Positions 13,338-43,430 of a stretch of 64,000 nucleotides of DNA are shown here, in pieces. The DNA comes from Microgenomates group bacterium (GTDB lineage: Bacteria > Patescibacteriota > Microgenomatia > UBA10105 > UBA927), in the NCBI GenBank assembly GCA_049287205.1, contig JBAQFJ010000001.1, positions 191,041 to 255,040 of the forward strand. Reading direction: 5' to 3'. The translations under genes and the position numbers were made by a program. Position 1 is the stretch's first letter, and the number at the start of each line of letters is the position of its first letter. The notes below the pieces were generated by a model. That model was given only the letters and a program-made list of their open reading frames with translations. It was not told the origin of the DNA and did no database searches.

Positions 13338-13377
13338 ATCTTTATTTATATCATAGAAATCTTGGAGACATTGGGGA

Positions 13378-13406
13378 TTGACGTGGGTCACGGCTTTCCG
13401 TATAAT
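13378..13406 (+). promoter_or_regulatory. Sigma70-type promoter, candidate rrn P1
   Basis: TTGACG, a 17-nt spacer, then TATAAT. Seen directly. Confidence 0.6.
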
Positions 13407-13458
13407 TGACTTTTGCAATGAGAAAGTAAGCCAATTCGCTTCGTGTATCTGGGTTCGA

Positions 13459-13483
13459 CCCCGCACAAGGCGGGGCTTTTTTT
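13459..13483 (+). promoter_or_regulatory. GC hairpin plus U7 in the rRNA leader. It is either a boxB-like element, a leader terminator/attenuator, or the terminator of a short sRNA.
   Basis: Stem ccccgc, loop acaag, stem gcgggg, then c and ttttttt. Seen directly. Confidence 0.5.
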
Positions 13484-13566: not shown

Positions 13567-15056
<1,490 letters not shown>

Positions 15057-21982: not shown

Positions 21983-22555
21983 ATGATTTTATCTGACGGT
22001 GATATCAGAAAAGCGTTGGTTGAAAAACGGATTGTTATTGATCCGTCCCCGAATTTTGAAACACAACTCGGTTCCTGTTCCATTGATTTTCGGCTTGGAA
22101 CAAAATTTCGTGTATTCAATCACAGCAAAGTTGCGCTCATTGACACCAATAACCCGAATGTTACGAGTGATCTGATGACGGAAGTGGAAGTTAAAGACGG
22201 GGAGCCGTTTATTTTACAGCCGGGTGATTTTGTTCTCGCAACAACCATGGAAACATTAACGATGCCAAACAATTTACTTGCACGGCTTGAGGGTCGTTCG
22301 AGTTTGGGAAGACTTGGTCTTGTGGTTCATTCCACCGCCTCTGTATTTGATCCGGGGTGGCATGGGGTAGCGGTTTTGGAACTTGGAAACCTTGGAAGAA
22401 TGCCGATTGCACTTTACAGCGGTATGCGTATCTGTTCATTTACGTTTGAGGAACTCACTTCGGATTCAGAACACCCGTATCTTACACGAAAATCTGCAAA
22501 ATATAAAAATCAGAATGCGCCAGTAGTCTCTCAGATCGCACGAGACCTCGAATAA
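21983..22555 (+). CDS. dcd: dCTP deaminase
   Basis: MILSDGDIRKAL...PGWHG...is typical of Dcd. Length is 190 aa. Confidence 0.9.
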   Translation: MILSDGDIRKALVEKRIVIDPSPNFETQLGSCSIDFRLGTKFRVFNHSKVALIDTNNPNVTSDLMTEVEVKDGEPFILQPGDFVLATTMETLTMPNNLLARLEGRSSLGRLGLVVHSTASVFDPGWHGVAVLELGNLGRMPIALYSGMRICSFTFEELTSDSEHPYLTRKSAKYKNQNAPVVSQIARDLE

Positions 22556-22564
22556 TCAGTCTTC

Positions 22565-24328
22565 TTATTTTACTGTCACACTTTTTGCCAAGTTCCTTGG
22601 TTTATCTGGATCTAAATGTTTGGAAAGTGTCAGATAGTAGGCAAGCAACTGTCCTGCGATAATGTTTGGGATGATGGTCGCCGTGCCCGCATCTGCTACT
22701 TCAATGTACGCATCAAATATTGTATTTGGTTTGTACGAAATACCGATGATGAATCCTCCGCGTGCTTTCATTTCCATTGCCGCTGCGAGGTTTGCTCCAT
22801 ATGTTTCATCGTTTGGTAAAAAGACGATGCATGGTGTGTTTTTTTCAATTAAGGCGATAGGTCCGTGTTTTAGCTCACCTGCTGCAAGACCCTCCGCATG
22901 AATATAGCTTATTTCTTTTATTTTCATTGCAGTTTCGAGTGCCGCAGGATATGAGGTACCGCGACCGACGACAAATAATTGCTTGTTTTCCTTAAGTTTT
23001 TCTGCAAGTGTTTTTATTGCGGCAAGTGATGTTGGTTCAAGTAATTTTTTGATTCCGCATGTTGCAGCAGTTAACACTTTTTTCCCTTCATCTAAATTCC
23101 CTGCGAGATCATATGCAGTCAAGAGAAGGATGCCAAGTTTTGTTGTCATGTCTTTTGTTGAGGCAACAGATATCTCAGGTCCTGCACCACATTGCACCTT
23201 GATATCGGATAATCGCCACAATGTTGATCCGTAGACATTGACGATGCTCGCAACTACCGCCTTGTGCGTTGCACCGCGTTTGACCGCATCGATGATATCC
23301 ATGGTTTCACCTGACTGCGAGAGCCCGATGAGAAGCGACTTATCATTTAGAAATTCTTCCTGATACGTAAATTCACTGGCAACACAGGCGTTGATATGTC
23401 GTTTGGCAATGCTAGAGAATAGGTAGGTACCAGCAAGACATGCGTAGTACGCACTTCCACAGCCGATAAGATACGTTCCGCGTGCGCTAGTTATTGCAGT
23501 TGCCAGTGTGTGTATATCATCACGGGTGAGCAATTCCTCCAGTATTGTCGGCTGCTCATGGATTTCTTTTTCCATGAACGTTGCATAGCCGTTTTTTTCC
23601 GCTGCGGTTACATTCCACGTTAATAGCGTTGGTTGTATGTCTTTTTTTTTGCCAGTGATTGCGTCAAATATTGTAATTGACTCGTCCGTTAACACTGCCA
23701 TTTCATTATCCTCCAAGAAATGCACTTTTTTGGTGTAGGGCAAAAGTCCTGCTGCATCGCTTGCGACGAATTGTTCGTTGTCTCCGTAGCCAACAACGAG
23801 TGGAGAACCGTTTCTAATTGCGACAATCTGCCGCTCTCCATTTTTGATTGCGATGATGGCATTGGAGCCGGTAAATTGTAAAAATGTTGTTCTGACACTT
23901 TCTACAAACGGCATGGTTTTGACTGCATCTTCAATCATGTGCGACGCAACCTCACTGTCTGTCTCCGACACAAATGTATGTTTGGTACGGAGTGCAGTTT
24001 TGAATGGTTCATAATTCTCAATGATTCCGTTGTGAATCACGGCAATGTTTTTTGTGCAATCTGCGTGCGGATGCGCATTTTCTTTCGTGACGCCTCCATG
24101 TGTTGCCCAGCGGGTATGCCCAAATGCAAGGGAGCTGTCTGGCATGCTATCAACCGTGGCATTGCCGATTTTTCCGATCTGTTTTTCGATCACTATTCCT
24201 TTGGCACCATCTGGTATTGCAGCAACGCCCCAACTGTCATATCCTCGGTATTCAAGGGTTTTGAGACCGGTTAATACGAGTTTTTGTGCATCAGTTCGTT
24301 TTCCAATGTATCCAAAAATTCCACACAT
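22565..24328 (-). CDS. glmS: Glutamine--fructose-6-phosphate aminotransferase
   Basis: The N-terminus MCGIFGYIG (Cys2 nucleophile), two SIS domains and a C-terminal ...KSVTVK are present. The start is set at the MCGIF methionine. Confidence 0.95.
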   Translation of the reverse strand: MCGIFGYIGKRTDAQKLVLTGLKTLEYRGYDSWGVAAIPDGAKGIVIEKQIGKIGNATVDSMPDSSLAFGHTRWATHGGVTKENAHPHADCTKNIAVIHNGIIENYEPFKTALRTKHTFVSETDSEVASHMIEDAVKTMPFVESVRTTFLQFTGSNAIIAIKNGERQIVAIRNGSPLVVGYGDNEQFVASDAAGLLPYTKKVHFLEDNEMAVLTDESITIFDAITGKKKDIQPTLLTWNVTAAEKNGYATFMEKEIHEQPTILEELLTRDDIHTLATAITSARGTYLIGCGSAYYACLAGTYLFSSIAKRHINACVASEFTYQEEFLNDKSLLIGLSQSGETMDIIDAVKRGATHKAVVASIVNVYGSTLWRLSDIKVQCGAGPEISVASTKDMTTKLGILLLTAYDLAGNLDEGKKVLTAATCGIKKLLEPTSLAAIKTLAEKLKENKQLFVVGRGTSYPAALETAMKIKEISYIHAEGLAAGELKHGPIALIEKNTPCIVFLPNDETYGANLAAAMEMKARGGFIIGISYKPNTIFDAYIEVADAGTATIIPNIIAGQLLAYYLTLSKHLDPDKPRNLAKSVTVK

Positions 24329-24679
24329 ATACGTATCTCCTTTTAAAAAATGAAGTGCTTGTTTTGTACTATTTGTGAAGCAACTCTCATGGATTGCTCT
24401 TTGTGCTTTTGTTGCCAAAAGATTTAAAACAATCGTTTTGGAAGAGAGTATTCCAAAGGGTTTCCGCTGATACTCTATAGAAGTATTCTATAGGTCCGAA
24501 TTTCGGCTATGCCGAACCCTTTTCCTCGTTATCCCACATAGTGGGACCATGCGCTCTTTTGTTTTTTTTGCTTCTCTTTGCTCCTTTCTTTGTCTATCAT
24601 ATGGTGTCTGTCTTGGACTGTCAAACTATTTGACAAATTGTAAAAAACAAGGAATAGTAGATAGTAAGGAGAAATTATT

Positions 24680-25141
24680 ATGAAAAAATCTGCTGCAATA
24701 GGTCATTCACAAGACCACGTAAAACCTTTTATTGTTGCTATAGGTATTGCCTTCACGTTTTTAGCACTTGTGGTCATCTACGTCGCATTTACCAAAGGCG
24801 GACTTGATATTCGAAGCCGTGCATCAGATTGTCCCGCAGCAACATATAACATAAAAACGAAAAAATACACCTGTTCCAGCGGAGTACTTCAAGGGAAGAA
24901 ATGTTGTCCTGCAAAAACAAATTTACAAAAAGCGCCAGCTGGAATGACAAAAAAATTAACGCCTACGCCGACATTTAGTATGAAAATGACTTCTACGACA
25001 ACGACTCCTGTTCCTGGAAGGTGTTGTCCAAAAGTGAATACGACATATGCAAAAAATACCTGTAATGGTGCCAGTAAAACAGCATGTACTAATAATCTAC
25101 GGTATTGCATGTGGACAACCGTCGCGTATTGTAGTTTTTAA
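24680..25141 (+). CDS. Small cysteine-rich, membrane-anchored or secreted protein
   Basis: Strong SD aaggag. N-terminal TM helix. There are 12 Cys, including the CC pairs KCCPAK and RCCPKV. The protein is Thr/Pro-rich. Confidence 0.6.
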   Translation: MKKSAAIGHSQDHVKPFIVAIGIAFTFLALVVIYVAFTKGGLDIRSRASDCPAATYNIKTKKYTCSSGVLQGKKCCPAKTNLQKAPAGMTKKLTPTPTFSMKMTSTTTTPVPGRCCPKVNTTYAKNTCNGASKTACTNNLRYCMWTTVAYCSF

Positions 25142-25173
25142 TTGTTTTGCCCGACAATAAACTAGGTGTTGGA

Positions 25174-25812
25174 ATGGTGAAATATCGACAGCATCATACA
25201 TATATATCTGTCATGGGCACGATGGGAAGCGGAAAAACAACCGCCGCCCGATTGCTTGCAAAGTCTTTGAAATTCAAGCTTCTTGAAGAAAATTTCGGGG
25301 AAAATGCGTTTCTTTCCCGTTTTTATGGTGATATGAAGCGGTGGGCGTTCCATTCACAGACATTTTTTCTTATGGAAAAAATACATCAGATGATGGATAC
25401 ATGTGCGCTTCTTGCAAAACATTCCATTATTCAGGATACGCCGATTCAGCAGGACGCATTTTCGTACGCAAAAGCGCAGCATGTGCTTGGGAATATTGAT
25501 GATGCGGAATGGAAACTGTACCAGAAAATTTATTTTTCGTTTGAATCGCAATTTCCTAAACCTGATTGCATCGTGTATCTTGAAACATCACTTCCTGCCA
25601 TTGCCAAACGAATTGCTTCCCGCGGACGGGGATATGAACAAAAAATCCCTGAAAATTATCTTGAGCTTCTGGATATGCTAAACCATAAGTGGCTTACGGA
25701 ACAAAAGGATATTCCTGTAGTAACGATTCAGACAGATGGTTTAAATATTGTAACGAGCATGAAAGCACAGAAACAATTTCTTGCTGTGGTGAGAAAACAA
25801 TGTAGGTTGTAA
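25174..25812 (+). CDS. Deoxynucleoside kinase (dCK/dGK/dAK family)
   Basis: P-loop VMGTMGSGKTT is present. FLSRFYGDMKRWAFHSQ is typical of the dNK family. Confidence 0.8.
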   Translation: MVKYRQHHTYISVMGTMGSGKTTAARLLAKSLKFKLLEENFGENAFLSRFYGDMKRWAFHSQTFFLMEKIHQMMDTCALLAKHSIIQDTPIQQDAFSYAKAQHVLGNIDDAEWKLYQKIYFSFESQFPKPDCIVYLETSLPAIAKRIASRGRGYEQKIPENYLELLDMLNHKWLTEQKDIPVVTIQTDGLNIVTSMKAQKQFLAVVRKQCRL

Positions 25813-25824
25813 GATACAAGATAT

Positions 25825-26478
25825 ATGGATGAACGATTTTCTGTTGTGAAAGTGCTTGTGTGGGACATTGATGGCACGTTGTATCCGCCGCACAAGGAAT
25901 TGTTTCATATGATCCGTGAAAGCGAATATAAAACCATCATGCATCATACAGGCTGGGATAAAGAGAAAGCGATGGAAGAGTTTGCCAAACTGCATAAGAA
26001 AACAATTCAAAGTGCAACGGAAGTGGTTGCCGTATTGAGTGGCAGGACTATTGCAGAAGTGGCGGTTGAATCGGAAACCTATTTTGACCGCAGAGATTTT
26101 ATACTAAAGGATGAACGTTTACCTCAATTGTTTACAAAACTTTCCAGTTACACGCATGTTACGCTTGGAAACGGATCTTTAGTGAAACAGAAAGAAACAC
26201 TCGTGTATCTCGGTTTAGACCTTTCACTGTTTTCTTTGTTTGTGACGGCAGAAACCGTTGGATTTACCAAGCCAAATCCCGCAGGTTTTCAGTATGTGCT
26301 CGCGCATACAGGATTTCCTCCAGAAGCACATATGATGATTGGAGATCGGGAAAAAGTGGATTTGGTTCCCGCTCACACGCTGGGCATGAAAACATGTCTA
26401 ATAGGAGAGGCTCCATCCGACACCATTGCAGACCTTGTCATTCCGACACTCTATGATATTGAAAGGAGTCTTGTATGA
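25825..26478 (+). CDS. HAD-superfamily hydrolase (possible nucleotidase)
   Basis: Motif I is WDIDGTL. Motif IV is IGDREKVD. Confidence 0.75.
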   Translation: MDERFSVVKVLVWDIDGTLYPPHKELFHMIRESEYKTIMHHTGWDKEKAMEEFAKLHKKTIQSATEVVAVLSGRTIAEVAVESETYFDRRDFILKDERLPQLFTKLSSYTHVTLGNGSLVKQKETLVYLGLDLSLFSLFVTAETVGFTKPNPAGFQYVLAHTGFPPEAHMMIGDREKVDLVPAHTLGMKTCLIGEAPSDTIADLVIPTLYDIERSLV

Positions 26479-27071
26479 ATACAGGTAAATTGATCGTGTT
26501 TGAAGGAGTAAGCGGTACAGGAAAAGAGACGCAAGCAAAATTACTTCAAACGTATTTAGCCAAGCAGCAGATCACATCAAGCATAGTATTTCATCCGACG
26601 CCGGATTTAAAAGAAGTGTTGTCATTGTGGCGGAAAACGCGATCAATTGATGCAACAACAGAATTTTATCTTCTTCTTGCCGACCGATATGATCGTGTTT
26701 CACAGGTTATTCAACCGGCCCTTGATCGAGGGGAATGGGTGATAAGCCTTCGAAATTATGTGAGTGCGCTCGTGTATCAGGCAAAAACACCGGAAGAACG
26801 GAAATGGATGAAGGAAGAATTTTTCCGATTCGAACCGAATCCTGATGGATTATTTCATTTTGACATTACTCCTGAGGCGGCGCTCAAACGAATTATGGAA
26901 CGGCATGAAAAAACGGGAGAGGCGATTGGGAAATTTGAAAACCCGAAAGCGCTTGAGGAAAAACGTGCAAAATTTATAGAAGTTATGCGTGATATTGATC
27001 ACGTTGCAATTGACGCAAGTCTATCCATTGAATATATTCATAAAAAAATCATTGCATCCATACATATTTAG
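26475..27071 (+). CDS. Thymidylate-kinase-like paralog (divergent)
   Basis: IVFEGVSGTGKETQ and LLLADRYDRVSQVIQPALDRGEWVIS align with the TMK core. The TREPGGT block is missing. Confidence 0.7.
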   Translation: MNTGKLIVFEGVSGTGKETQAKLLQTYLAKQQITSSIVFHPTPDLKEVLSLWRKTRSIDATTEFYLLLADRYDRVSQVIQPALDRGEWVISLRNYVSALVYQAKTPEERKWMKEEFFRFEPNPDGLFHFDITPEAALKRIMERHEKTGEAIGKFENPKALEEKRAKFIEVMRDIDHVAIDASLSIEYIHKKIIASIHI

Positions 27072-27130
27072 ATTTTTTGATCTCTTTGGTTTTTGATTTA
27101 CGCATGGTAGTATACTTTTTATTGTGACCT

Positions 27131-27775
27131 ATGAGAAACGGATTTTTTATTACATTTGAGGGGGGAGAAGGAGCAGGAAAATCCATGCAAGTTGAAATTC
27201 TTGCATGTCATCTTCGAGAAGTTGGCTATAAAATCACCGTAACCCGTGAACCAGGAGGCACGCGAATTGGAGAACAAATCCGTGCAATTACGCACAGCAG
27301 AGAAAACGTAGATCTGAATGAAAAAGCGGAAAGCTATCTGATGGCAGCAGCTCGTGCACAACACGTTGCTGAAACCATTATGCCTGCACTTGAGACGAAT
27401 AGAATTGTGATCTGTGATCGATTTGTGGATTCTTCCATTGTGTATCAGGGGTTTGGGCGAAATTTAGGTGCGGATAAAATTGCTTCCTTAAACGAAATGG
27501 CGGTGAATGGCGCAACACCTGATCTTACATTTCTTCTTGATATTGACCCTGCGATCGGTGCTAAACGCCAACAGGAAAAAAAGAATAAAGATCGGTTAGA
27601 TATGCAGCAGGAAGATTTTTATACGCGTGTTCGGAACGGCTATCAAACACTGGTGAGGAAAAATAAAAAACGATTTGTGGTGATCGACGCCAATCAATCA
27701 ATCGAAAAAATCGCAACAAAAATATGGCAGGTGGTACAAAAAAAGATTGGTACGACTGAGTATGAAAAAAAATAA
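27131..27775 (+). CDS. tmk: Thymidylate kinase
   Basis: FITFEGGEGAGKS, TREPGGT and CDRFVDSSIVYQG are canonical TMK motifs. Confidence 0.9.
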   Translation: MRNGFFITFEGGEGAGKSMQVEILACHLREVGYKITVTREPGGTRIGEQIRAITHSRENVDLNEKAESYLMAAARAQHVAETIMPALETNRIVICDRFVDSSIVYQGFGRNLGADKIASLNEMAVNGATPDLTFLLDIDPAIGAKRQQEKKNKDRLDMQQEDFYTRVRNGYQTLVRKNKKRFVVIDANQSIEKIATKIWQVVQKKIGTTEYEKK

Positions 27776-28355
27776 TACAAAAAAAGGGATTCCTGGCAAA
27801 TTAACCGTTATCGCAGGGCCAATGTTTGCGGGAAAAACAACGAAATTACTCACCATATTTCGTGTTCTGTCGGATTTAGGATTTAGCGTGTTATGTTTTA
27901 AAGCTGAGGCGAATAGCAACGGGGGTATGGGGCACACAAAGTCTCATGATGAACGGCCTCTTGCAGTTATCTATATTGATATGGATAAACCGGAACGCAT
28001 TTTGGACTATGTAGGAGAGCAGGGAATTCAAAAAGTTATTATCGATGCGATTCATTTTTTCCCGAAAGTCGGGTTTGAAAAGACAGTGGATAAACTCCTT
28101 GCAAAAGGCATTGATGTATATTTGAACGGCCTTATCTATGATTATCGAAAAAAAGAATACGGTGCAACACGCGCGCTCATGAATAAAGCAGATGAATGTT
28201 TGGAGCTTTTTTCCATCTGCGTTCGCTGCGGATCAAAAGCGATGCATTCCGAACGGGTTTCCGGAGGGACGCAACTTTCCATAGGTACAACGAGTACTAA
28301 AAAAGCAGAATATATTCCCGTCTGCGCTTCCTGCCACAAACTCTATCAAGGATGA
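27762..28355 (+). CDS. tdk: Thymidine kinase
   Basis: P-loop AGPMFAGKTT is present, with a C-terminal zinc ribbon CVRCGS...CASCH. It overlaps the tmk end. Confidence 0.9.
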   Translation: MKKNNTKKGIPGKLTVIAGPMFAGKTTKLLTIFRVLSDLGFSVLCFKAEANSNGGMGHTKSHDERPLAVIYIDMDKPERILDYVGEQGIQKVIIDAIHFFPKVGFEKTVDKLLAKGIDVYLNGLIYDYRKKEYGATRALMNKADECLELFSICVRCGSKAMHSERVSGGTQLSIGTTSTKKAEYIPVCASCHKLYQG

Positions 28356-28372
28356 ATCTGCAAACGAGAGAC

Positions 28373-29146
28373 ATGATTATTGTGACAGGGCCTTCTGCTT
28401 CAGGGAAAACCAAAGCGTTAAGTATTCTTCGGGCTATTATCCCTAATGAATATGAATTTCCTTATGAACCTGTTCCACTTTCAGATTCACATACAATTCT
28501 AAAACAAGTACGTGAAGATGATAGGTCGGGAGGACACAATCATTATCATCCATGGGAGGGTGGTGGGCTAGGGCATACGCATGAGCAGCATGATGGAATT
28601 ACCCCCTTTACCCTTGCAGGGAAATCTATCGGATTTAACTTTATGAGAGATTTTTTTGTAGCGCTCAAAGAGCTACCTCATGATGGGAAAATCAAATGCG
28701 CAGAATGGTCTGGTGGAAGAAATGGAAATGAACCAGAAGATCCTGCTTCAAGAACAGATATTGCGTTTTCGACAATTGTGGAACAACTGAAAACGTGGCC
28801 ATCAGAGGGTTTGGATCGAGTGATGGGAATATTACATATTTCTACTGATCGTGATATTCGGTTTTCCCAAAATAAAAGAAGAAGTACACCAACTGATGAA
28901 CAAATTCGTTTAGGACTTGCATCATGGGAATTATCACCAACAGCAATGCTAATTTTTGATAAAGATGATTTTCCATCACCTCTGGTGTGGCAGTATCTTG
29001 GATGTGAGCATCATATTCCATTTATGAGGACGATTTTTAATGATGGAAAAGACTCATTGGAAACAGGAATCCGCGCTGCACTTCCTCGAATGTTTGAAAT
29101 AGGTATGGGGAAGGAAATGGGAAAGTCTTACGGTAAAGAACGGTAA
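28373..29146 (+). CDS. Uncharacterised P-loop NTPase or kinase with a His-rich segment
   Basis: Walker A MIIVTGPSASGKT is present. His-rich segment GGHNHYHPWEGGGLGHTHEQHDG follows. No family was recognised. An alternative start is at 28352. Confidence 0.6.
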   Translation: MIIVTGPSASGKTKALSILRAIIPNEYEFPYEPVPLSDSHTILKQVREDDRSGGHNHYHPWEGGGLGHTHEQHDGITPFTLAGKSIGFNFMRDFFVALKELPHDGKIKCAEWSGGRNGNEPEDPASRTDIAFSTIVEQLKTWPSEGLDRVMGILHISTDRDIRFSQNKRRSTPTDEQIRLGLASWELSPTAMLIFDKDDFPSPLVWQYLGCEHHIPFMRTIFNDGKDSLETGIRAALPRMFEIGMGKEMGKSYGKER

Positions 29147-29184: not shown

Positions 29185-30006
29185 ATGTCAGAATCAATAA
29201 ATGAAATGCCAAAAGATGATGAAGCTGCATATCTGAGTTGGCAAAAAGCATTAGAAGAGGACACCTTACATGATGATCCACGTCTGCTTCCGGATACTGT
29301 TTCTACGGATGAATTTTTGCGTGTTGAAAAGAAAGCGGAAGTTGCAGAAAAAAAAGCTGTAGAAGCAGAAAAAGTTGCGCTTATTGATGAAAAAACAGGA
29401 CTTCCAAACGGAGCGGCTTTTCAACAGAGACTAGAACAATTTCATGCATCTCATACATCTGGTGCACTTATTATCATGGATTTGAATGGATTAAAGATTG
29501 TAAATGATGAAATGGGCGGACATGCAGTGGGAGATCATCTTTTAATTGCTATTGCAACAGAGCTTCGGCTCAACACATCCGAACAAGATTTTGTCGCGAG
29601 AATGAATGATAAAGGAGGAGATGAATTTGCAGTTTTGTTGCCTGGTTTATCTAAAACAAAATTGTCAGTTGTATTGCAACGGCTTCAGAAATTATTCCCT
29701 GGAGGATTTGATGAACAGGATCATTTAATACCAACGGTTTCTATCGGCGCAGTGCATACAGACGATATTGGCGATGCAGAGCGTTCTTCTTTACGTGATT
29801 GTGCTGACTACGCGATGTATAAAGCAAAACATCTGGCAAAAGCAGCTCCTTCGATTACGGAACATAATATGCATTTAGATACCGTATACACGTTACGGAA
29901 ACCGACTGCGTCCTATGTCTATAATCCGCAAGAGGATGGTCCTGTCTTAACAGTGAGAGACGCCCTTGCATCATTTCAGGCACAGCCACAAGCTCGCTTG
30001 AAATAA
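29185..30006 (+). CDS. GGDEF-domain protein (putative diguanylate cyclase)
   Basis: DEKTGLPN, GGDEF (KGGDEFAVLL) and IGAVHT motifs are present. There is an N-terminal coiled-coil region. Confidence 0.8.
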   Translation: MSESINEMPKDDEAAYLSWQKALEEDTLHDDPRLLPDTVSTDEFLRVEKKAEVAEKKAVEAEKVALIDEKTGLPNGAAFQQRLEQFHASHTSGALIIMDLNGLKIVNDEMGGHAVGDHLLIAIATELRLNTSEQDFVARMNDKGGDEFAVLLPGLSKTKLSVVLQRLQKLFPGGFDEQDHLIPTVSIGAVHTDDIGDAERSSLRDCADYAMYKAKHLAKAAPSITEHNMHLDTVYTLRKPTASYVYNPQEDGPVLTVRDALASFQAQPQARLK

Positions 30007-30132
30007 TCGCGTTCTTCTGGTATACTCCCTCTATTACACACGTTCGCATTTGTATCTTCTCTCTGGGTTTCCAGGGGAAGCGGACGGAGGAAAAAGAAGA
30101 TACACCGGATTTTAGCTTGTATAAATCATAAG

Positions 30133-30160
30133 CGCTCCAGTGTATAGGAGCGTTTTTTTT
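30133..30160 (+). terminator. Intrinsic terminator after the GGDEF gene
   Basis: Stem cgctcc, loop agtgtata, stem ggagcg, then tttttttt. Confidence 0.7.
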
Positions 30161-30256: not shown

Positions 30257-31204
30257 ATGAAAGAAGTAACATTGCAGGAATTACTCGAAGCTGGATGTCA
30301 TTTTGGCCACAAATCAGAACGGTGGCACCCAAAAGCATCCAAGTTTATCTACGTTGAAAAAGATGGTATTCATATCATTGATTTAGCCAAAACCAAGGCT
30401 GGCCTTGAAGAAGCAGCCGGGTTTGTTCGTGACCTCGTGGCAGGTGGCAGCGAAATTTTGTTTGTTGGAACCAAGAGACAAGCAAAAGGAATTGTGAAAA
30501 CAGAAGGTGTTCGCGCAGAAGCTCCATATATTACAGAACGATGGATTGGTGGATTTTTGACCAACTGGGATGGTATCCACAAAAATATTCAAAAAATTAT
30601 CCGTATGCAGGAAGAAGAAGCAACGGGTAAATGGAAGAAATTTCCAAAGCATGAACAGATGAAAATGGGACGATACCTTCGAAGACTTAACGTCTTTTAC
30701 GGTGGTGTGTTGAAGCTTGATGTTCCTCCACAGGCACTCTTTATCATAGATGTGAAGAAAGAAATTGCCGCAGTGAGAGAAGCTGTGAGAATCGGTGTTC
30801 CGGTGGTAGCTATCGTTGACACAAATTCAGATCCAACCGGTATTGAACATGTGATTCCTGCAAATGATGATGCAGTCGGATCTGTGACACTCATTACCCA
30901 GACCATTGCAAATGCATATATCGAAGGAAAAGCCGAAGCTTTAAAAAATTCCGTCGACGCTAAAGCTGCGGCGGACAAGGCAGCAGAAAAAGCAAAAAAA
31001 GAAGCGGTAAAAACAACGGATGTGAATGAAGAAATAAAAAAAGAAGAAAAACGAGTGGCTGAAGAAATTACGGCAACACTGACAGTTGAAGCAAAACCTC
31101 GGCCAAAGGCCGATCAGCCTTTGGTTAAAAAAGCAGTCAAAAAACCGCGAGTGGCAAAAACGGCCCCTGCAAAAGCTGTGGCCGAAAAGAAAGAAACTGT
31201 ATAA
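30257..31204 (+). CDS. rpsB: 30S ribosomal protein S2, with a Lys/Ala-rich C-terminal extension
   Basis: ELLEAGCHFGHKSERWHPK is the S2 signature. SD ggaagg lies upstream. Confidence 0.95.
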   Translation: MKEVTLQELLEAGCHFGHKSERWHPKASKFIYVEKDGIHIIDLAKTKAGLEEAAGFVRDLVAGGSEILFVGTKRQAKGIVKTEGVRAEAPYITERWIGGFLTNWDGIHKNIQKIIRMQEEEATGKWKKFPKHEQMKMGRYLRRLNVFYGGVLKLDVPPQALFIIDVKKEIAAVREAVRIGVPVVAIVDTNSDPTGIEHVIPANDDAVGSVTLITQTIANAYIEGKAEALKNSVDAKAAADKAAEKAKKEAVKTTDVNEEIKKEEKRVAEEITATLTVEAKPRPKADQPLVKKAVKKPRVAKTAPAKAVAEKKETV

Positions 31205-31225
31205 TAGTTGATAAGGAGTAAACTC

Positions 31226-31696
31226 ATGAATTTTTCACTTGATTTATTAAAAAAGCTTCGTGAAGAAACACAGGCAGGGGTTGCTGATTGTAAAAAGGCC
31301 TTGGACGAATCCAAAGGTGATTATAAAAAAGCCATGGAGCTGTTGAAGTCATGGGGTATCGAGAAAGCAGCTAAAAAAGGTGATCGGGAAACTGCAGTTG
31401 GCATTATCGAATCCTATGTGCATGCAAATTCCAAGGTTGGTGTTTTGGTTGAAGTCAGATGTGAAACAGATTTTGTGGCAAAGAATGAAGAATTCAAAAA
31501 ACTTGCTCATGAACTTGCTTTGCAGATTGCGGCGATGGATCCAAAAAACGTGGACGAACTGTTAAAAAGTTCATACATCCGTGATGGAAAAACCACGATG
31601 GGGGATCTTGTAAAACAGACGATCACCAAAATTGGTGAAAACATAACTGTTGTGCAGTTTACCCGCATGCAGCTGGATAAAAAAGAATTGGTCTGA
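31226..31696 (+). CDS. tsf: Elongation factor Ts (short form)
   Basis: GVADCKKALDES and VEVRCETDFVAKNEEF are present. SD aaggag lies 7 nt upstream of ATG 31226. Confidence 0.9.
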   Translation: MNFSLDLLKKLREETQAGVADCKKALDESKGDYKKAMELLKSWGIEKAAKKGDRETAVGIIESYVHANSKVGVLVEVRCETDFVAKNEEFKKLAHELALQIAAMDPKNVDELLKSSYIRDGKTTMGDLVKQTITKIGENITVVQFTRMQLDKKELV

Positions 31697-31711
31697 TAGT
31701 ATAGTCTTACT

Positions 31712-32275
31712 ATGATAGATACCATCCTATCCCTTGCGCAGGGGAAAATGCGTAAAGCAATAGAAATTACCCGCAATGATCTGTCTTCCATCAGATCCGG
31801 TCGTGCAACTGGTGCATTGGTAGAAAATATTATCATCACCGCATACGACGGAACCCAGAAATTGAAACTTCAGGAAATGGCAACCATTGGTGTTCCTGAT
31901 GCAAAAACCATTGTGATTACCCCGTATGATCCGAGCGTTGCGCAGGATATCATCAAAAGTATTCAAGGATCCGACACGGGTATGAATCCCGTATCTGACG
32001 GGGAAGTCATCCGTATTACGATTCCTCCAATGAGTCAGGAACAACGTGAAGAATATATCAAGCTTGCACGCACGAAACTTGAAGGTGGTCGCATTATGGT
32101 TCGTCAAATCCGTCAGGAAGCAATGAAAGATTTGAAAAAAGAAGTGGAAAGCGGAACATTGACTGAAGATCAGCAAAAGGTCGGTGAGAAAAAAGTACAG
32201 GAGCTCACTGATGAGATGATTTCCGAAGTTGATGCAACTGGCGAGAAAAAAGAAGCGGAACTCATGCAAATTTAA
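31712..32275 (+). CDS. frr: Ribosome recycling factor
   Basis: LSSIRSGRATGALVENI...RITIPPMSQEQREE is canonical RRF. Confidence 0.95.
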   Translation: MIDTILSLAQGKMRKAIEITRNDLSSIRSGRATGALVENIIITAYDGTQKLKLQEMATIGVPDAKTIVITPYDPSVAQDIIKSIQGSDTGMNPVSDGEVIRITIPPMSQEQREEYIKLARTKLEGGRIMVRQIRQEAMKDLKKEVESGTLTEDQQKVGEKKVQELTDEMISEVDATGEKKEAELMQI

Positions 32276-33985: not shown

Positions 33986-35431
33986 ATGAAACAATTTGAT
34001 AAAAAAGACGCAAAGAAAAAACTCGATAATATTTCTGACTGGTATAACGATATTGTTCTCAAAGCAGAACTTGCAGATTACGGTCCTGTCAGGGGAACAA
34101 TGGTTATCCGGCCATACGGCTATGCAATTTGGGAGACGGTGCAGCATATTTTTGACAAGATGATCAAAGCTGCAGGGGTGGAAAATGCGTATTTTCCTAT
34201 GTTTATCCCTGAATCGCTCCTCAAAAAAGAAAAAGAACATGTGGAAGGATTTTCTCCGGAACTTGCAGTTGTTACTCATGCGGGCGGGGAAAAGCTTACA
34301 GAGCCGTTGATTGTGAGACCTACGTCGGAAACGATTATGTATTCCATGTACGCCAAATGGGTGAAAAGCTGGAGGGATTTGCCGCTGCTTCTCAATCAAT
34401 GGTGTAATATTGTGCGTTGGGAAAAACGAACCTATCTGTTTTTGCGTACGACGGAATTTTTGTGGCAGGAAGGGCATACCGCACATGCCAGCCATGAAGA
34501 GGGAATCGCATTTGCCTTGAAAGCACACGAATGGTACAGGCAAATTTTTGAAGACTATTTCGCGATGCCGGTTCTCTTGGGCAAGAAAAGCAAAACTGAA
34601 CAATTTGCTGGTGCTGCAACAACCTTTACGGTTGAAAGTTTGATGCCGGATGGAAAAGCTTTGCAAGCAGCAACATCTCATGATTTAGGACAGAATTTTT
34701 CTAAAGTGTTTGATATTCAATTTCAAGATAAAGAAAAGAAGTTAGAATACGCATGGCAAACTTCGTGGGGACTCTCGACACGGGCACTTGGTGGACTGTT
34801 TTTGACACATGGGGATGATGCAGGACTCATTCTTCCTCCAAAGGTTGCGCCTATCCAGCTAGTCATCGTACCGATCCTATCTTCAAAAATGACACCGAAA
34901 AAAGATCAGCCGCAGTATGTGAAACGGATTACTGACGCATTTATTTCTCAAGGAATTCGCGTCAAACTGGATGATACGGATGACAGCCCGGGACGGAAAT
35001 TCAACAAATGGGAAATGAAAGGCGTGCCGATGCGTATTGAGATTGGCGTGAAAGAAACAGATGATGAAACTGTAACACTTGTTTTCCGTGATACGGGAGA
35101 AAAGAAAACAATGCCGTGGAAAGAAGCAGTGATGCAGATTGATGATGAACTTGCAGCGATGCAGGTGCGACTTTTTGAAAAACAAAAAGCATTCTTAAAA
35201 AGCCGTACATACACTGTTTCATCATATGATGAATTCAAAAAGATTATGAGTACGACAAAAGGATTTATCAGCGCCTTGTGGTGTGAGGATGCCGCATGTG
35301 AAAAAGCAATCAAGGATGAAACAAAAGCAACAACTAGGTGTTTACCAATGGATGCGCATGAGGAAAAAGGTGTGTGTGTACATTGCGGAAAACCAAGTAC
35401 TCACCGTTGGATTTTCGGACAAAGTTATTGA
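33986..35431 (+). CDS. proS: Prolyl-tRNA synthetase (archaeal/eukaryote-like short form with a C-terminal zinc-binding domain)
   Basis: Class II motifs are present. The N-terminus is ISDWYNDIVLKAELADYGPVRGTMVIRPYGYAIWE. The C-terminus is CVHCGKPSTHRWIFGQSY. Length is 481 aa. Confidence 0.95.
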   Translation: MKQFDKKDAKKKLDNISDWYNDIVLKAELADYGPVRGTMVIRPYGYAIWETVQHIFDKMIKAAGVENAYFPMFIPESLLKKEKEHVEGFSPELAVVTHAGGEKLTEPLIVRPTSETIMYSMYAKWVKSWRDLPLLLNQWCNIVRWEKRTYLFLRTTEFLWQEGHTAHASHEEGIAFALKAHEWYRQIFEDYFAMPVLLGKKSKTEQFAGAATTFTVESLMPDGKALQAATSHDLGQNFSKVFDIQFQDKEKKLEYAWQTSWGLSTRALGGLFLTHGDDAGLILPPKVAPIQLVIVPILSSKMTPKKDQPQYVKRITDAFISQGIRVKLDDTDDSPGRKFNKWEMKGVPMRIEIGVKETDDETVTLVFRDTGEKKTMPWKEAVMQIDDELAAMQVRLFEKQKAFLKSRTYTVSSYDEFKKIMSTTKGFISALWCEDAACEKAIKDETKATTRCLPMDAHEEKGVCVHCGKPSTHRWIFGQSY

Positions 35432-35432
35432 T

Positions 35433-35888
35433 ATGGTAAAACACTACACGTCAACTGCAGTGTTGGTTACGGATACTAAACCTCGAAAAGTTCTTTTGGG
35501 ACTTCATCAAAAACTACAGATGTGGCTACCACCTGGTGGGCATCAGGAAGCAAATGAAAACCCCTTTGAGTGTTTGATACGGGAGGTTCTTGAGGAAACG
35601 GGATTTGATGTGACATCGTATTTGCCGAAATCACAGAAGTTGGATGAACGGGTCAATTCGCTTGCCATTCCTGATTATCTGTTTGAGGAACCGATTCCCG
35701 CGCGTGGTGACACGTCAGAACATATTCATATGGATTTTGTGTATGTTATTGTTGTTCCAGAATTTGAGCCGCACTTTTCTGAACGCGAATATGCCCAGAT
35801 GCGATGGTTTGGTGAGGGAGATGTTGAAGATCTTGCGTTATACCCAAATATCAAAGAAATTATTCTTCCTCGGTGTTTTTCCAAATAA
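35433..35888 (+). CDS. NUDIX hydrolase
   Basis: Nudix box PGGHQEANENPFECLIREVLEETGF is present. Confidence 0.8.
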   Translation: MVKHYTSTAVLVTDTKPRKVLLGLHQKLQMWLPPGGHQEANENPFECLIREVLEETGFDVTSYLPKSQKLDERVNSLAIPDYLFEEPIPARGDTSEHIHMDFVYVIVVPEFEPHFSEREYAQMRWFGEGDVEDLALYPNIKEIILPRCFSK

Positions 35889-40203: not shown

Positions 40204-40464
40204 ATGTTTAATCCGTTTAAACAATTAGGTGATATGAATGAAATGAGGAAGTCAGCGATGGCAATCCAAAAAGCATTAGCCGTCATGTCATTTACCGCAA
40301 AAGAAGGTGATGTTGAAATAACAATAAATGGAAATCAGGAAGTACAATCCGTGACGATTGCAGGGGTTCCAAATGAATCCATTAAACGGGCAATGGGCAA
40401 TGTGATTAAGCAAGCTCAACAGGCAGCCGCAGGACAGTTTGCACAAATGTCAAAGGGCATGTAA
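40204..40464 (+). CDS. ybaB: Nucleoid-associated protein YbaB/EbfC
   Basis: The 86-aa YbaB family protein reads MFNPFKQLGDM...VEITINGNQEV. SD aaggagg. Confidence 0.9.
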   Translation: MFNPFKQLGDMNEMRKSAMAIQKALAVMSFTAKEGDVEITINGNQEVQSVTIAGVPNESIKRAMGNVIKQAQQAAAGQFAQMSKGM

Positions 40465-40468
40465 TATC

Positions 40469-41410
40469 ATGGCAATTGTTGTTACAGGAAGCATCGGGTA
40501 CGACTATATCATGGGGTTTCAAGGAAAAATTTCCGATCGGATCATGCCGGATAAAATTCACACGATTTCCTTATCGCTTCTTGCAGATAAATTACATAAA
40601 CAATTTGGCGGAACCGCGGGGAATATCGCGTATTCATTAAAATTACTTGGCGTCGAGCCGATTGTGCAGACGTACGCAGGGAATGATTTCGCTTCGTATA
40701 GGGAATTCTGGAACAAGCATGCCATTGCAACACATCATGTTGCAATAGACCAAAAAAATTCGAGTGGAACGTATTTTGTCGTCACTGACCAAGCGGATAA
40801 TCAAATCGGTGCCTATTATAAAGGCGCACTCGTTCGAAATACATCGCTTCATCTTTCTGGCATTCATGAACGTTTTGAGCTCGTGGTGATTTCTGCAAAT
40901 GAACCGAAAGCAATGGTGCAATACGTCACCGAATGTGCGAAACAAAAGATTCCGTATATGTACGATCCTTCGTTTCAGATTGGAAATTTTTCAAAGAAAG
41001 AATTATATGATGGCGTGAGACACGCGGCGATGCTTATCGGAAATGATTACGAGATTGCGCTTCTTGAAAAACGTCTTGAAATAACGCACAGTGATTTGCT
41101 TGCACTCTGTCCTATCGTCATTACTACACTTGGGGCAAAGGGATCATTGATTGAGACGCGTGAAAAACGGATACCAATACGCCCAGCCAAAGTAAAGGCA
41201 ATTGTTGATCCGACTGGTGCAGGTGATGCGTATAGATCAGGATTTTTAGGAGGATTCACAAGAGGTTTTGATTTGAAAACGTGTGGGCAAATGGGATCGA
41301 TTGCTGCTGTATATACAGTCGAAGAATTTGGGACACAAACACATATGTATACAAAAAAAGAATTTTGCACGCGGTATAAGAAAAATTATAAAAATATTTT
41401 ATCGTTATAA
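40469..41410 (+). CDS. PfkB-family ribokinase-like kinase (possible adenosine/nucleoside kinase)
   Basis: FGGTAGNIA and DPTGAGDAY are PfkB motifs. It lies next to ahcY. Confidence 0.75.
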   Translation: MAIVVTGSIGYDYIMGFQGKISDRIMPDKIHTISLSLLADKLHKQFGGTAGNIAYSLKLLGVEPIVQTYAGNDFASYREFWNKHAIATHHVAIDQKNSSGTYFVVTDQADNQIGAYYKGALVRNTSLHLSGIHERFELVVISANEPKAMVQYVTECAKQKIPYMYDPSFQIGNFSKKELYDGVRHAAMLIGNDYEIALLEKRLEITHSDLLALCPIVITTLGAKGSLIETREKRIPIRPAKVKAIVDPTGAGDAYRSGFLGGFTRGFDLKTCGQMGSIAAVYTVEEFGTQTHMYTKKEFCTRYKKNYKNILSL

Positions 41411-41428
41411 GATAAAGGAGAAAGAGCT

Positions 41429-42691
41429 ATGGAAAAAACAGGAGATGTAAAAAATATACAACTTGCCAAGGCCGGAAAACTTCGTATTGAATGGGCGGGA
41501 AATGCAATGCCAGTGTTAAAACTTATTGAAAAACGATTCATAAAAGAACAACCACTTAAAGGATTGACGATTGCCGCATGTTTGCATGTGACAGCAGAGA
41601 CTGCGAATTTGATGTTGGCACTCAAGGCGGGGGGAGCAAAAGTATATTTGTGCGCAAGTAATCCACTTTCCACACAAGACGATGTCGCGGCATCACTCGT
41701 TAGCGATTATCATATTCCGACATTCGCCATCAAAGGCGAGGATACAAAAACGTACTATTCTCATTTGAATGCGGTGTTGGATATGCATCCGAATATCACC
41801 ATGGATGATGGTGCGGATCTGGTCTCGCTCCTTCACACAAAACGAAAATCGCAATTGCCTGAAATTATCGGATCAAGCGAGGAAACAACAACAGGAGTTA
41901 TTCGTTTAAAAGCGATGATGAAAGATGCGGCACTCAAGATTCCGGTATTTGCGGTCAACGATAGTGATACAAAACACATGTTTGATAATCGGTATGGCAC
42001 AGGACAATCAACGCTTGACGGTATCATGCGTGCAACGAATATGCTGCTTGCAGGAAAAACATTTGTTGTTGCAGGATATGGATGGTGTGGACGGGGACTA
42101 GCTAGCCGCGCTCATGGGATGGGCGCACATGTCGTCGTAACGGAAGTAGATTCCATTAAAGCGCTCGAGGCAGTGATGGATGGATATGCTGTTATGCCCA
42201 TGAACAAAGCTGCTAAAATTGGTGATATGTTTGTGACGGTGACGGGAGATAAAAATGTTGTTTCTCTCGATCACATGATGAGCATGAAAGATGGGGCGGT
42301 TATTGCAAATTCTGGCCACTTCAATGTTGAGGTTGCAGTTGAAGCATTGCAGAAAAAAGCAAAATCACGACGGACAATCAGGACGTATGTGGAAGAATAT
42401 ACGCTTGCGGATAAGACAAAACGATTTGTACTTGCAGATGGCAGGCTTATTAATTTGTCTGCAGCGGAAGGCCATCCTGCAGAGGTAATGGACATGAGTT
42501 TTGCCAATCAGGCGCTTGCCGCGGAATTTTTTATTAAGAACAAAGGGAAACTTGAAGTGAAGGTGTATACTATCTCAAAAGAAATGGATCAGGAAATTGC
42601 AAGATTGAAGTTAAAAGCAATGGGTGTGCAGTTTGATACGCTTACCAAAGAACAGGAAGCATACTTAGGGAGTTGGCAAGAAGGAACATAA
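41429..42691 (+). CDS. ahcY: Adenosylhomocysteinase
   Basis: SAH hydrolase. The NAD fold is [12 protein letters not shown]. Conserved HxTxQT-like blocks are present. Length is 420 aa. Confidence 0.9.
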
Positions 42692-42698
42692 CTGAAGT

Positions 42699-43421: not shown

Positions 43422-43430
43422 CAAATATAT

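Follow-up and report, generated by a model that had tools for sequence, protein, structure and literature searches.

The stretch of DNA analyzed here, 64,000 nucleotides from a Microgenomates group bacterium (assembly GCA_049287205.1, contig JBAQFJ010000001.1, positions 191,041 to 255,040; hereafter the window), carries at positions 25147-29146 an array of six genes on the forward strand, five of which encode P-loop kinase-like proteins and one a phosphatase of the HAD type. In order, these are a deoxynucleoside kinase (dNK)-like P-loop kinase (open reading frame (ORF) 1, 25147-25812; PF01712, 3.8e-42), a HAD-IA phosphatase (ORF2, 25825-26478; PF00702, PF13419, and PF13242), a paralog of the thymidylate kinase (TMK) family that we refer to as TMK2 (ORF3, 26475-27071; PF02223, 103 bits, 1.6e-29), the dTMP kinase gene tmk (ORF4, 27131-27775; Thymidylate_kin, 1.5e-56), a tdk gene for a TK1-type thymidine kinase (TK; ORF5, 27747-28355; PF00265, 1.2e-25), and a gene for a 264-residue P-loop protein outside known families (ORF6, 28352-29146; Walker A GPSASGKT). 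An earlier sequence-only reading had described this region as a co-directional, partly overlapping cluster of five P-loop nucleotide kinases and a HAD hydrolase, and that outline is borne out: all six ORFs lie on the + strand with tight or overlapping spacing, and the G-x4-GK motif is seen in all five kinase-like proteins. The HAD and TMK2 genes overlap by 4 nt (ATGA), as do tdk and ORF6, where the ORF6 start overlaps the tdk stop. The overlap of tmk and tdk is 14 nt from the ATG at 27762, which is likely the true start of tdk, or 29 nt from the TTG at 27747. The beginning of the array would shift slightly, the ATG at 25174 being a likelier start for the dNK ORF than position 25147.

This arrangement recurs outside the window. 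Related loci were obtained by retrieving the sequence that surrounds ORF6 and TMK2 homologs (the L001-L017 series), and in L001-L005, L007, L010, L016, and L017 the genes follow the order dcd, glmS on the opposite strand, dNK where present, HAD, TMK2, tmk, TK, ORF6, and, further along, rpsB-tsf-frr. The identity of ORF6 to the window protein is 81% in L001-L003, 49-51% in L007 (a Candidatus Gottesmanbacteria metagenome-assembled genome), 46% in L004/L005, and 29% in L017, and the ORF6-family protein of L016 is 25% identical. Some loci depart from this order. The dNK gene is missing from L010 and from L015, the latter having genes for adenosine deaminase, an IMPDH-family enzyme, and GMP synthase as flanks. 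In L014, a 208-residue protein with a 'ParB CE' domain (L014:7603-8229; PF24392, 3e-15) occupies the tmk position between TMK2 and TK, and in L006 such a protein (L006:81-707) is encoded immediately 5' of TK on a contig that ends before the TMK2 position. An enzyme of the ParB/Srx fold could here have displaced dTMP kinase in a non-orthologous manner, or tmk could lie elsewhere in these genomes.

The invariant core of the array is HAD-TMK2-(tmk or ParB CE)-TK-(ORF6 or a relative), and in most loci it is preceded by dNK. The ORF6 slot is retained down to 22-29% ORF6 identity, and HAD and TMK2 are adjacent in every fetched locus that spans both positions, with the 4-nt overlap present in the window and several relatives. 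Amino acid identities to the window proteins extend from 22% (ORF6) up to 91% (TK). Between the window and L001, dN/dS is 0.03-0.20 across the six genes, which are rough ratios with dS near saturation, and purifying selection acts on all six genes. Because the gene order recurs in the related loci fetched, adjacency by chance is ruled out, and the cluster is not split in related genomes, a fate that the sequence-only reading had named as fatal to its interpretation. The sole match among GTDB representative genomes, obtained with a narrow ORF6 alignment, is a Candidatus Gottesmanbacteria metagenome-assembled genome, and the named homologs of ORF1 and ORF3 belong to Gottesmanbacteria, Microgenomates, or Patescibacteria.

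By its sequence, ORF4 is a textbook dTMP kinase, just as had been proposed. It scores 203.9 bits against TIGR00041 (cut-off 83.25) and 155 bits to Staphylococcus aureus TMK, and every hallmark of the family is present, namely GAGKSM, TREPGGT, CDRF, VYQ, and a basic LID (KRQQEKKNKDRLD). TMK2, which is 26% identical to ORF4, also exceeds the TIGR00041 cut-off (100.6 bits), and its AlphaFold2 model (pLDDT 93.5), whose best Foldseek match is Aquifex TMK (TM 0.80, 33% identity), predicts that ORF3 has the TMK fold. The sequence-only reading had noted that the paralog lacks the TREPGGT block, and indeed residues 39-43 read FHPTP, with an invariant His40-Pro41 in place of the Arg that binds the acceptor phosphate. 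Two further positions of the active site have changed. In the P-loop (GTGKET), Glu18 follows the Walker Lys at the site where TMKs carry a Mg-binding Ser or Thr, and is invariant in 55 orthologs. In the W-x-I-S-L-R segment (SLRN), Leu92 stands for the Walker-B/DRX Asp and is at least 90% conserved in the 55 orthologs, with Arg93 retained. The reference residues in human TMK are Ser20 (Mg ligand), Asp96 (Walker-B/DRX), Arg97, and Arg45 (acceptor phosphate) (PMC9599734). The remainder of the TMK machinery is kept, including S-A-x-V-Y-Q with an invariant Tyr101-Gln102, the LID (R139-x3-R143-x4-GE-x2-G-x-FE) with invariant Arg139 and Arg143, and Arg71 of LLADR, which is at least 90% conserved. Over 55-119 orthologs, the invariant residues include K17, E18, H40, P41, R93, Y101, Q102, R139, and R143. 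There are also extra conserved basic residues, Arg53 and Arg56 of W-R-K-x-R together with Lys46 and Arg74, in a protein with an overall pI of 7.0. We take R71 and Q102 to be the thymine contacts of TMK structures, and the retained Tyr101, if it serves sugar discrimination as we assume it does in TMKs, would speak against ribonucleotide acceptors.

TMK2 is not a decaying gene. Its protein identity among relatives (55-66%) is similar to that of tmk (60-64%), its dN/dS is 0.04, and its orthologs, from more than 100 clusters, are 55-86% identical to one another. The changes in TMK2, like those in the dNK-like protein and TK described below, are fixed lineage-wide and hence not signs of decay. NMP kinases have repeatedly lost the Ser/Thr that follows the Walker Lys, as an attacking phosphate needs no proton acceptor (PMC9599734); since this loss is tolerated, the changes in TMK2 are compatible with activity. 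The same Asp-to-Leu change that occurs naturally in TMK2 is found in PDB 5x8d, the D90L mutant of Thermus thermophilus TMK.

The other two kinases of recognizable family also carry a fixed substitution at a catalytic position. ORF1 scores 144.8 bits against PF01712 (cut-off 27) and has the Walker A motif GSGKTT (residues 27-32), LEEN (46-49), and the LID sequence RIASRGRGYE (155-164). Aligned to the deoxynucleoside kinases of PDB 8puu and 2jas, however, its D/E-R-S motif reads Q-D-T-P (residues 96-99), so that Arg is replaced by Thr. This DTP variant is found in 118 of the 120 closest homologs (72-86% identical) and in L001, L004, L007, and L016. The assignment as a deoxynucleoside kinase thus stands as regards family, Walker A, the strand-2 acid, and the Arg-rich LID, but not as regards the DRX-equivalent Arg of the D/E-R-S motif. 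ORF5 scores 90.8 bits against PF00265 (cut-off 20.6) and has the Walker A motif GPMFAGKTT, SHDER, and a Cys4 zinc ribbon (C158, C161, C193, and C196). In an ungapped alignment with Thermotoga maritima TK (PDB 2orw), IDEVQFF becomes IDAIHFF, with Ala101 for Glu and His103 for Gln, and IDA[IV]HFF is present in the window TK and in eight related loci. The Glu in question corresponds to the proton acceptor of human TK1, Glu98 (PMC8757434). ORF5 also falls below every NCBIfam thymidine-kinase equivalog cut-off, the best being NF003296 (102.4 bits vs 183). With Ala at the proton-acceptor position and scores below these cut-offs, the label 'canonical tdk' given to this gene earlier does not hold.

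Because both proteins are very strongly conserved, the changes in the dNK-like protein and TK are fixed lineage-specific solutions rather than damage. We infer that in TK His103, which lies two residues past the missing Glu and points to the same side of the strand, might take over as the base. The dAK/dGK-type kinases of Gram-positive bacteria and mycoplasmas, tdk, and tmk belong to the same families and folds as ORF1, ORF5, and ORF4, respectively, and like these known salvage enzymes ORF1 and ORF5 lie well above the Pfam cut-offs and have the P-loop, the LID, and, in TK, the zinc ribbon. Unlike them, they share a single conserved operon that also encodes a phosphatase, an orphan kinase, and a second TMK, and they carry DTP for D/E-R-S in the dNK-like protein and Ala for the acceptor Glu in TK.

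The HAD protein (ORF2) has intact motifs I-IV (D14-x-D16, T113, K149, and G173-D174...D179), and its matches to PF00702, PF13419, and PF13242 are above the cut-offs. Its best NCBIfam matches are all below theirs (TIGR02253, 73 vs 170 bits), as are those to the pyrimidine 5'-nucleotidase equivalogs (TIGR01993, 50.7 vs 142.9 bits; TIGR02254 YjjG, 40.1 vs 159.9). The earlier call of a HAD hydrolase is thereby upheld, while its possible nucleotidase function fits the intact catalytic motifs but falls short of the equivalog cut-offs. Motifs I-IV and the cap type are common to ORF2 and the HAD-IA subfamilies of YjjG, TIGR01993/SDT1, and TIGR02253 'CTE7', but ORF2, far under each equivalog cut-off, remains unclassified within HAD-IA. 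Probably it acts as a nucleotidase on (d)NMPs, with the substrate suggested by gene context only.

ORF6 had been singled out as an unclassified P-loop protein, and it remains one: the Walker A motif is present, and no match was found in Pfam, NCBIfam, PHROGs, or PADLOC, while PDB sequences match no further than the P-loop. A word-index search returned 13 relatives, and a profile search of 1.84 billion cluster representatives gave 106 hits at E<=1e-3, 44 of them at E<=1e-30. ORF6 is the founder of a small orphan family of ~100 cluster representatives among 1.84 billion. Attempts to place it in a known family failed. At E<=10, searches with 56 members gave generic P-loop models only, with PRK/uridine kinase reached by four members (best E 0.0013), and hhalign comparisons with the dNK, TMK, TMK2, TK, and CMK of the window aligned the P-loop alone. 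ORF6 is also distinct from the Gottesmanbacteria phosphoribulokinase of Jaffe et al., which is a recognizable homolog of that family (PMC6389311), whereas ORF6 has no PF00485 match. A search for an association with defense systems (PADLOC) found none, and with no PHROG hits for ORF6 and a uniform GC content, phage origin is not supported. Some members of the family, from other metagenomes, are tandem duplications of ~500 residues with two domain copies (P0014, P0016, P0017, P0040, and L009:688-2208), in which Walker A is often missing from one copy; P0014 adjoins transketolase.

The AlphaFold model of ORF6 (pLDDT 83, pTM 0.84) shows the strand-helix order of a P-loop kinase around a five-stranded parallel core. 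The nearest Foldseek matches are AK1/AK5 (adenylate kinases), DPCK (dephospho-CoA kinase), TMK, dNK, and UCK2 (uridine-cytidine kinase), with weak values for AK1 (E 2.5e-4, TMq 0.44, TMt 0.57), and the model suggests an NMP/nucleoside-kinase-like (adenylate-kinase-like) P-loop fold. Five residues (G18, K19, H64, H66, and H75) are invariant across 56 diverse members, and T20, D45, D56, G61, H77, F86, E118, G122, N124, S138, R170, D206, and N230 are at least 90% conserved. D45 directly follows strand 2; a conserved Asp in this place is characteristic of those P-loop kinases whose acceptor is a hydroxyl group, which we regard as a lead only. E118 (AEW) is at the end of strand 3, the Walker-B position, and in the LID-like region R170 is conserved family-wide and R177 in closer homologs. 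The two pairs His64-x-His66 and His75-x-His77 lie within a lower-confidence part (residues 59-90) of an insert of ~45 residues that also carries conserved Asp residues. The four His and the Asp residues probably form a metal site that shapes a substrate-binding insert. In NMP kinases, the region matching this insert forms the acceptor-binding domain, and some adenylate kinases have structural metal sites; the iron-containing adenylate kinase 3l0p is among the structural hits of ORF6. We also see a presumed resemblance to uridine-cytidine kinase in several motifs (SDSH vs QDSFY, AEW vs FEG, and HISTDRDIR vs FVDTDxDxR), although the HMM comparisons and the fold ranking do not support it, UCK2 being at rank 28-31 among the structural hits. 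In sum of its likenesses, ORF6 shares with the AK/DPCK/UCK/TMK/dNK fold an N-terminal Walker A, a parallel core, an acid at the Walker-B end (Glu118), and a LID-like Arg, and differs in having no sequence match to any curated family and in its HxH...HxH insert.

Closer members of the family (at least 29% identity) occupy the slot downstream of TK, and the 236-241-residue proteins encoded downstream of TK in L014-L016 are full-length remote homologs (hhalign 97.4%, 212 columns) without the histidine cluster. Most likely, ORF6 would be an ATP-dependent small-molecule kinase that works with TK; this partnership is suggested because the ORF6 start overlaps the tdk stop in the loci examined. Its acceptor could be a hydroxyl group, of a nucleoside or sugar, or a dNDP.

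The genes that flank the array are in part conserved with it. The dCTP deaminase family gene dcd (21983-22555, +; Pfam DCD 1.2e-46) lies beyond glmS and is a neighbor of the array in most related loci. Between it and the array, glmS (22565-24418, - strand) is divergent from the kinase operon and is preceded by a glmS ribozyme/riboswitch (24381-24566, - strand; Rfam RF00234, 55 bits). Divergent promoter-like hexamer pairs at 24596-24658, between the ribozyme and the first + strand ORF, match the consensus at 11/12 and 10/12 positions and mark a candidate start of the transcription unit; as such sites are no more numerous in this region than in shuffled sequence, the evidence is weak. A candidate end is a terminator-like hairpin with a T-run at 30130-30155 (+; 9-bp stem, 5 GC pairs, T-rich tail), upstream of rpsB. 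The first ORF on this strand, ORF0 (24680-25141, +), encodes a Cys-rich protein of 153 residues with a single N-terminal hydrophobic segment and no family match, and ends 5 nt before the dNK ORF. Its membership in the kinase module is doubtful. In L001, the same slot holds a Pfam-unmatched gene for 128 residues, and in L004 and L016 it is empty. At the other end, the slot after ORF6 is taken in the window by a GGDEF diguanylate cyclase gene (29185-30006, +; intact GGDEF at residues 144-148, no recognized sensor domain), which is probably co-transcribed with the kinase array in the window and its closest relatives only. Elsewhere, His_Phos_1 and serine hydroxymethyltransferase (SHMT) genes are found in this slot. 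The His_Phos_1 gene follows the ORF6-family gene at L004:8735-9319, L017:8810-9400, and L016:10637-11212, with a 4-nt overlap in L004 and L017. Other nucleotide enzymes encoded near the cluster in relatives are a PNP/UDP phosphorylase, guanylate kinase, adenosine deaminase, an IMPDH-family enzyme, GMP synthase, SHMT, and a ThyA-like protein. The last of these, beside dcd at L014:1190-2737, is an unusual fusion of 515 residues that combines MtrA-like, thymidylate-synthase-like (PF00303, 1.2e-12), and pterin-binding DUF4346 parts.

CPR (candidate phyla radiation) bacteria commonly lack nucleotide synthesis pathways (PMC6389311). We consider it somewhat more probable than the opposite that the array is a conserved operon of Microgenomates/Gottesmanbacteria-type CPR bacteria for the capture and phosphorylation of deoxynucleosides and the balancing of deoxynucleotide pools, and we have much less confidence in any specific substrate than in this overall salvage picture. 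Salvage combined with pool adjustment is suggested because dcd is encoded upstream and, in relatives, SHMT, a nucleoside phosphorylase, gmk, and purine interconversion genes lie nearby, in addition to the nucleoside kinases and tmk. In this scheme, deoxynucleosides from a host or from degraded DNA would be phosphorylated by the dNK-like kinase (dA/dG/dC type) and the TK1-type kinase (dT/dU), and tmk would convert dTMP to dTDP. The HAD phosphatase, together with His_Phos_1 in relatives, would return surplus (d)NMPs to nucleosides and so re-balance the pools; the two phosphatases may thus provide the reverse steps, each adjoining one uncharacterized kinase (HAD/TMK2, and His_Phos_1/ORF6 in relatives). 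The dUMP/dTMP branch would be fed by dcd, with SHMT and the ThyA-like gene in relatives, and because dcd lies upstream and relatives have SHMT and a ThyA-like gene beside the cluster, dTMP may also come from dCTP/dUMP in this lineage. Within the 64-kb window, which covers ~6% of the genome, thyA/thyX, nrd, ndk, pyrH, adk, and gmk were not found; cmk and genes for PRPP synthetase, a PfkB kinase, and pyruvate kinase are present. Literature searches found nothing on this cluster in CPR bacteria.

For TMK2, the reading that we favor is an active kinase with a remodeled acceptor site. Retained in TMK2 are the Walker Lys, the Arg finger of DRX, the arginines of the LID, and the presumed pyrimidine-contact Arg and Gln. 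The TREPGGT Arg for the acceptor phosphate has been lost, as has the P-loop acid for reading the 3'-OH, and Glu-Leu replaces the Ser/Thr-Asp pair. With the pyrimidine contacts kept and the acceptor-phosphate Arg and 3'-OH acid gone, the expected acceptor would be not plain dTMP but another pyrimidine deoxynucleotide, or else a compound with more phosphates. The sequence-only reading had taken a second TMK to imply a distinct (d)NMP substrate. A distinct substrate is only one of several open readings, which include an inactive partner subunit and a polyphosphate kinase. The broader idea of a dedicated deoxynucleotide salvage or remodeling module fares better, in that the linkage and family assignments uphold a conserved nucleotide-metabolism module, although the label given to tdk needs correcting and a second TMK need not mean a distinct substrate.

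Several findings weigh against the salvage proposal. Three of the four recognizable kinases lack a residue that counts as catalytic in their family (the dNK-like protein its DRX-type Arg, TK its proton-acceptor Glu, and TMK2 its Walker-B Asp), and, by analogy, rPPK3 is inactive owing to a lost DRX Arg (PMC12995831). The fold matches of ORF6 are weak (TM 0.44-0.57, E ~3e-4) and indicate no single kinase family, and since its distant relatives lie in unrelated neighborhoods, beside sugar oxidoreductases, transketolase, and miscellaneous genes, a link to thymidine metabolism does not hold throughout the family. The predicted promoter and terminator, finally, are consensus matches only. The catalytic losses, to which TMK2 adds that of the Ser/Thr after the Walker Lys, together with the adjacency of the TMK2 gene to canonical tmk, would also fit a role of TMK2, and possibly of the dNK-like protein and TK, as a non-catalytic regulatory or scaffolding subunit of true kinases. 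The precedent is PPK3 (Saci_2019/Saci_2020), a polyphosphate kinase of Sulfolobus made up of two TMK paralogs, one catalytic (cPPK3) and one inactive and regulatory (rPPK3), in which the inactive paralog activates its partner via oligomerization (PMC12995831). We regard such a role as unlikely here: TMK2 retains the DRX Arg that rPPK3 has lost (Arg93), and the Walker Lys, the LID arginines, and the base-contact residues Arg71/Gln102 are conserved over 55 orthologs. Moreover, the clusters of L014 and apparently L006 have no canonical tmk and yet retain TMK2 or TK, so that TMK2 persists without a partner nearby, and the substitutions are specific and fixed (Glu18 in TMK2, His103 in TK), which suggests relocated catalytic groups rather than a relaxed site. 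The same precedent raises the possibility that TMK2 is itself a PPK3-type polyphosphate kinase, from a family of TMK paralogs exapted for phosphate transfer between polyP and ADP/NDP, that serves as an energy or phosphate buffer and takes no part in dTMP metabolism. PPK3 enzymes were formerly annotated as thymidylate kinases, and most members of their clade are bacterial dTMPK paralogs from genomes that also encode a canonical dTMPK (PMC12995831). TMK2 resembles PPK3 in being a TMK-fold paralog annotated as 'dTMP kinase' alongside a canonical TMK, with an altered acceptor site surrounded by extra invariant basic residues (K46, R53, R56, and R74); its model superposes on the S. tokodaii cPPK3 homolog St1543 as well as on TMKs (TM 0.80-0.83), and the surroundings of the cluster, in relatives and in the window, include His_Phos_1 (fold of the PhoE/SixA type) and NUDIX genes. 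Predicted PPK3 operons, however, carry further polyP genes such as PPX, CHAD, SixA/PhoE, NUDIX, and Pst, and all but one encode both subunits (PMC12995831), whereas this cluster has no cPPK3/rPPK3 pair but one variant paralog and one canonical tmk, both with the DRX Arg; PPX, CHAD, and Pst are absent nearby, where the neighbors are instead dcd, glmS, dNK, HAD, tmk, tdk, SHMT, and rpsB, and all that recalls the polyP set is His_Phos_1 in some relatives and NUDIX genes at a distance. In addition, TMK2 has a pI of 7.0 and thus is not basic, it is closer to Aquifex TMK (33%, 58.9 bits) than to St1543 (22-24%, 44.6 bits), with the Thermus TMK likewise closer, and it loses the DRX Asp but keeps the DRX Arg and the thymine-contact Arg/Gln, unlike PPK3, which lost its dTMP-binding residues. 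A polyphosphate kinase is therefore improbable in our estimation.

Other explanations concern ORF6 or the purpose of the whole module. ORF6 could be a metal-binding NTPase, or an enzyme of unrelated sugar metabolism merely on the same transcript, and not a kinase of the pathway. A metal site is suggested by its four invariant or near-invariant His and its Asp residues, CobW/HypB/UreG is among the weak Pfam hits obtained with a few members, and distant relatives adjoin transketolase or oxidoreductases of the GFO/IDH/MocA and SDR types. A His_Phos_1 gene comes next in several relatives, overlapping by 4 nt, and the pairing of a kinase with His_Phos_1 recalls the 6-phosphofructo-2-kinase/fructose-2,6-bisphosphatase architecture. 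Structures of that kinase (6PF2K) are nevertheless absent from the top 50 structural hits, the fold matches are to AK/DPCK/TMK/dNK-type kinases and not to SIMIBI GTPases, and the overlapping TK-ORF6 junction is kept to 29% identity, with remote His-less homologs holding the slot as well, so we find a place outside the pathway rather doubtful. Very improbable, to our mind, is a phage-like module that makes or channels a non-canonical deoxynucleotide (dUTP or a 5-substituted dUTP), in which dcd would supply dU nucleotides, HAD would remove dTMP/dUMP, TMK2 would be a kinase for an unusual dNMP, and ORF6 and the ParB CE protein would be modification kinases. Bacillus phages with uracil- or hydroxymethyluracil-containing DNA induce a dCTP deaminase, a nucleotidase, and an extra dNMP kinase. 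The cluster of relatives is flanked by SHMT and the ThyA-like fusion with its MtrA-like and pterin-binding domains, and the changes in TMK2 affect the sugar and phosphate contacts and spare those to the pyrimidine, both of which would suit such a module. The cluster, however, resides in a conserved chromosomal core from glmS to rpsB and includes a TK as well as a canonical tmk, no phage or defense family is matched by ORF6, and DNA-modification enzymes were not found in the window. Finally, the fixed changes in TMK2, TK, and the dNK-like protein, taken with ORF6, might reflect CPR-specific phosphotransferases with new acceptor or donor chemistry, beyond textbook salvage. Examples would be a dedicated kinase for dUMP or a modified dNMP, or a metal-dependent stand-in for a missing nucleoside-diphosphate or UMP kinase. 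We hold this to be an unlikely extension of the salvage proposal; if it is true, ORF6 would found a new family of nucleotide kinases.

CPR bacteria account for much of the diversity of bacteria and are mostly unable to make their own nucleotides, for which reason the conversion of scavenged nucleosides to dNTPs underlies their dependence on hosts. The operon described here appears to be a conserved core of this conversion in one major CPR lineage. In this lineage-specific module, one protein family is uncharacterized and three active sites depart, in a conserved way, from the textbook form. Standard pipelines would mis-annotate or leave blank half of its proteins, with two genes called 'dTMP kinase', one called 'hypothetical', and a TK below the equivalog cut-off. 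Its natural variants put to the test the indispensability of the Walker A Ser/Thr, the Walker B Asp, the DRX Arg, and the Glu base of TK1, and ORF6 provides a defined candidate for a missing step in a minimal nucleotide metabolism.

Some further features of the window deserve mention. Downstream of the array, rpsB, tsf, and frr are contiguous (30257-32275; also in L001, L004, L006, L014, and L017), without pyrH, the gene for the AA_kinase-fold UMP kinase, at its usual bacterial place between tsf and frr. TMK2 might stand in for a missing UMP kinase, but Tyr101, in the role assumed above, would weigh against that. A second small nucleotide-related cluster at 40439-44345 comprises co-directional genes for a PfkB-family kinase, S-adenosylhomocysteine hydrolase, another HAD hydrolase, and PRPP synthetase. 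Cytidylate kinase (55029-55895, -; 288 residues) has an N-terminal extension of ~40 residues, its Pfam match beginning at residue 42; a NUDIX hydrolase gene lies near it at 57148-57630 (-), and another NUDIX gene occupies 35283-35888. The 16S rRNA gene at 13568-15054 is complete, with genes for a GDSL lipase and glycosyltransferases as neighbors and tRNA-Ile 6.8 kb away; 23S and 5S were not found within the 64-kb window, and the rRNA operon appears to be unlinked. Four large ORFs of 391-698 residues without a Pfam match at E<=1e-4 lie at 6398-8092 (-), 8099-9274 (-), 11370-13466 (-), and 61603-63069 (+).

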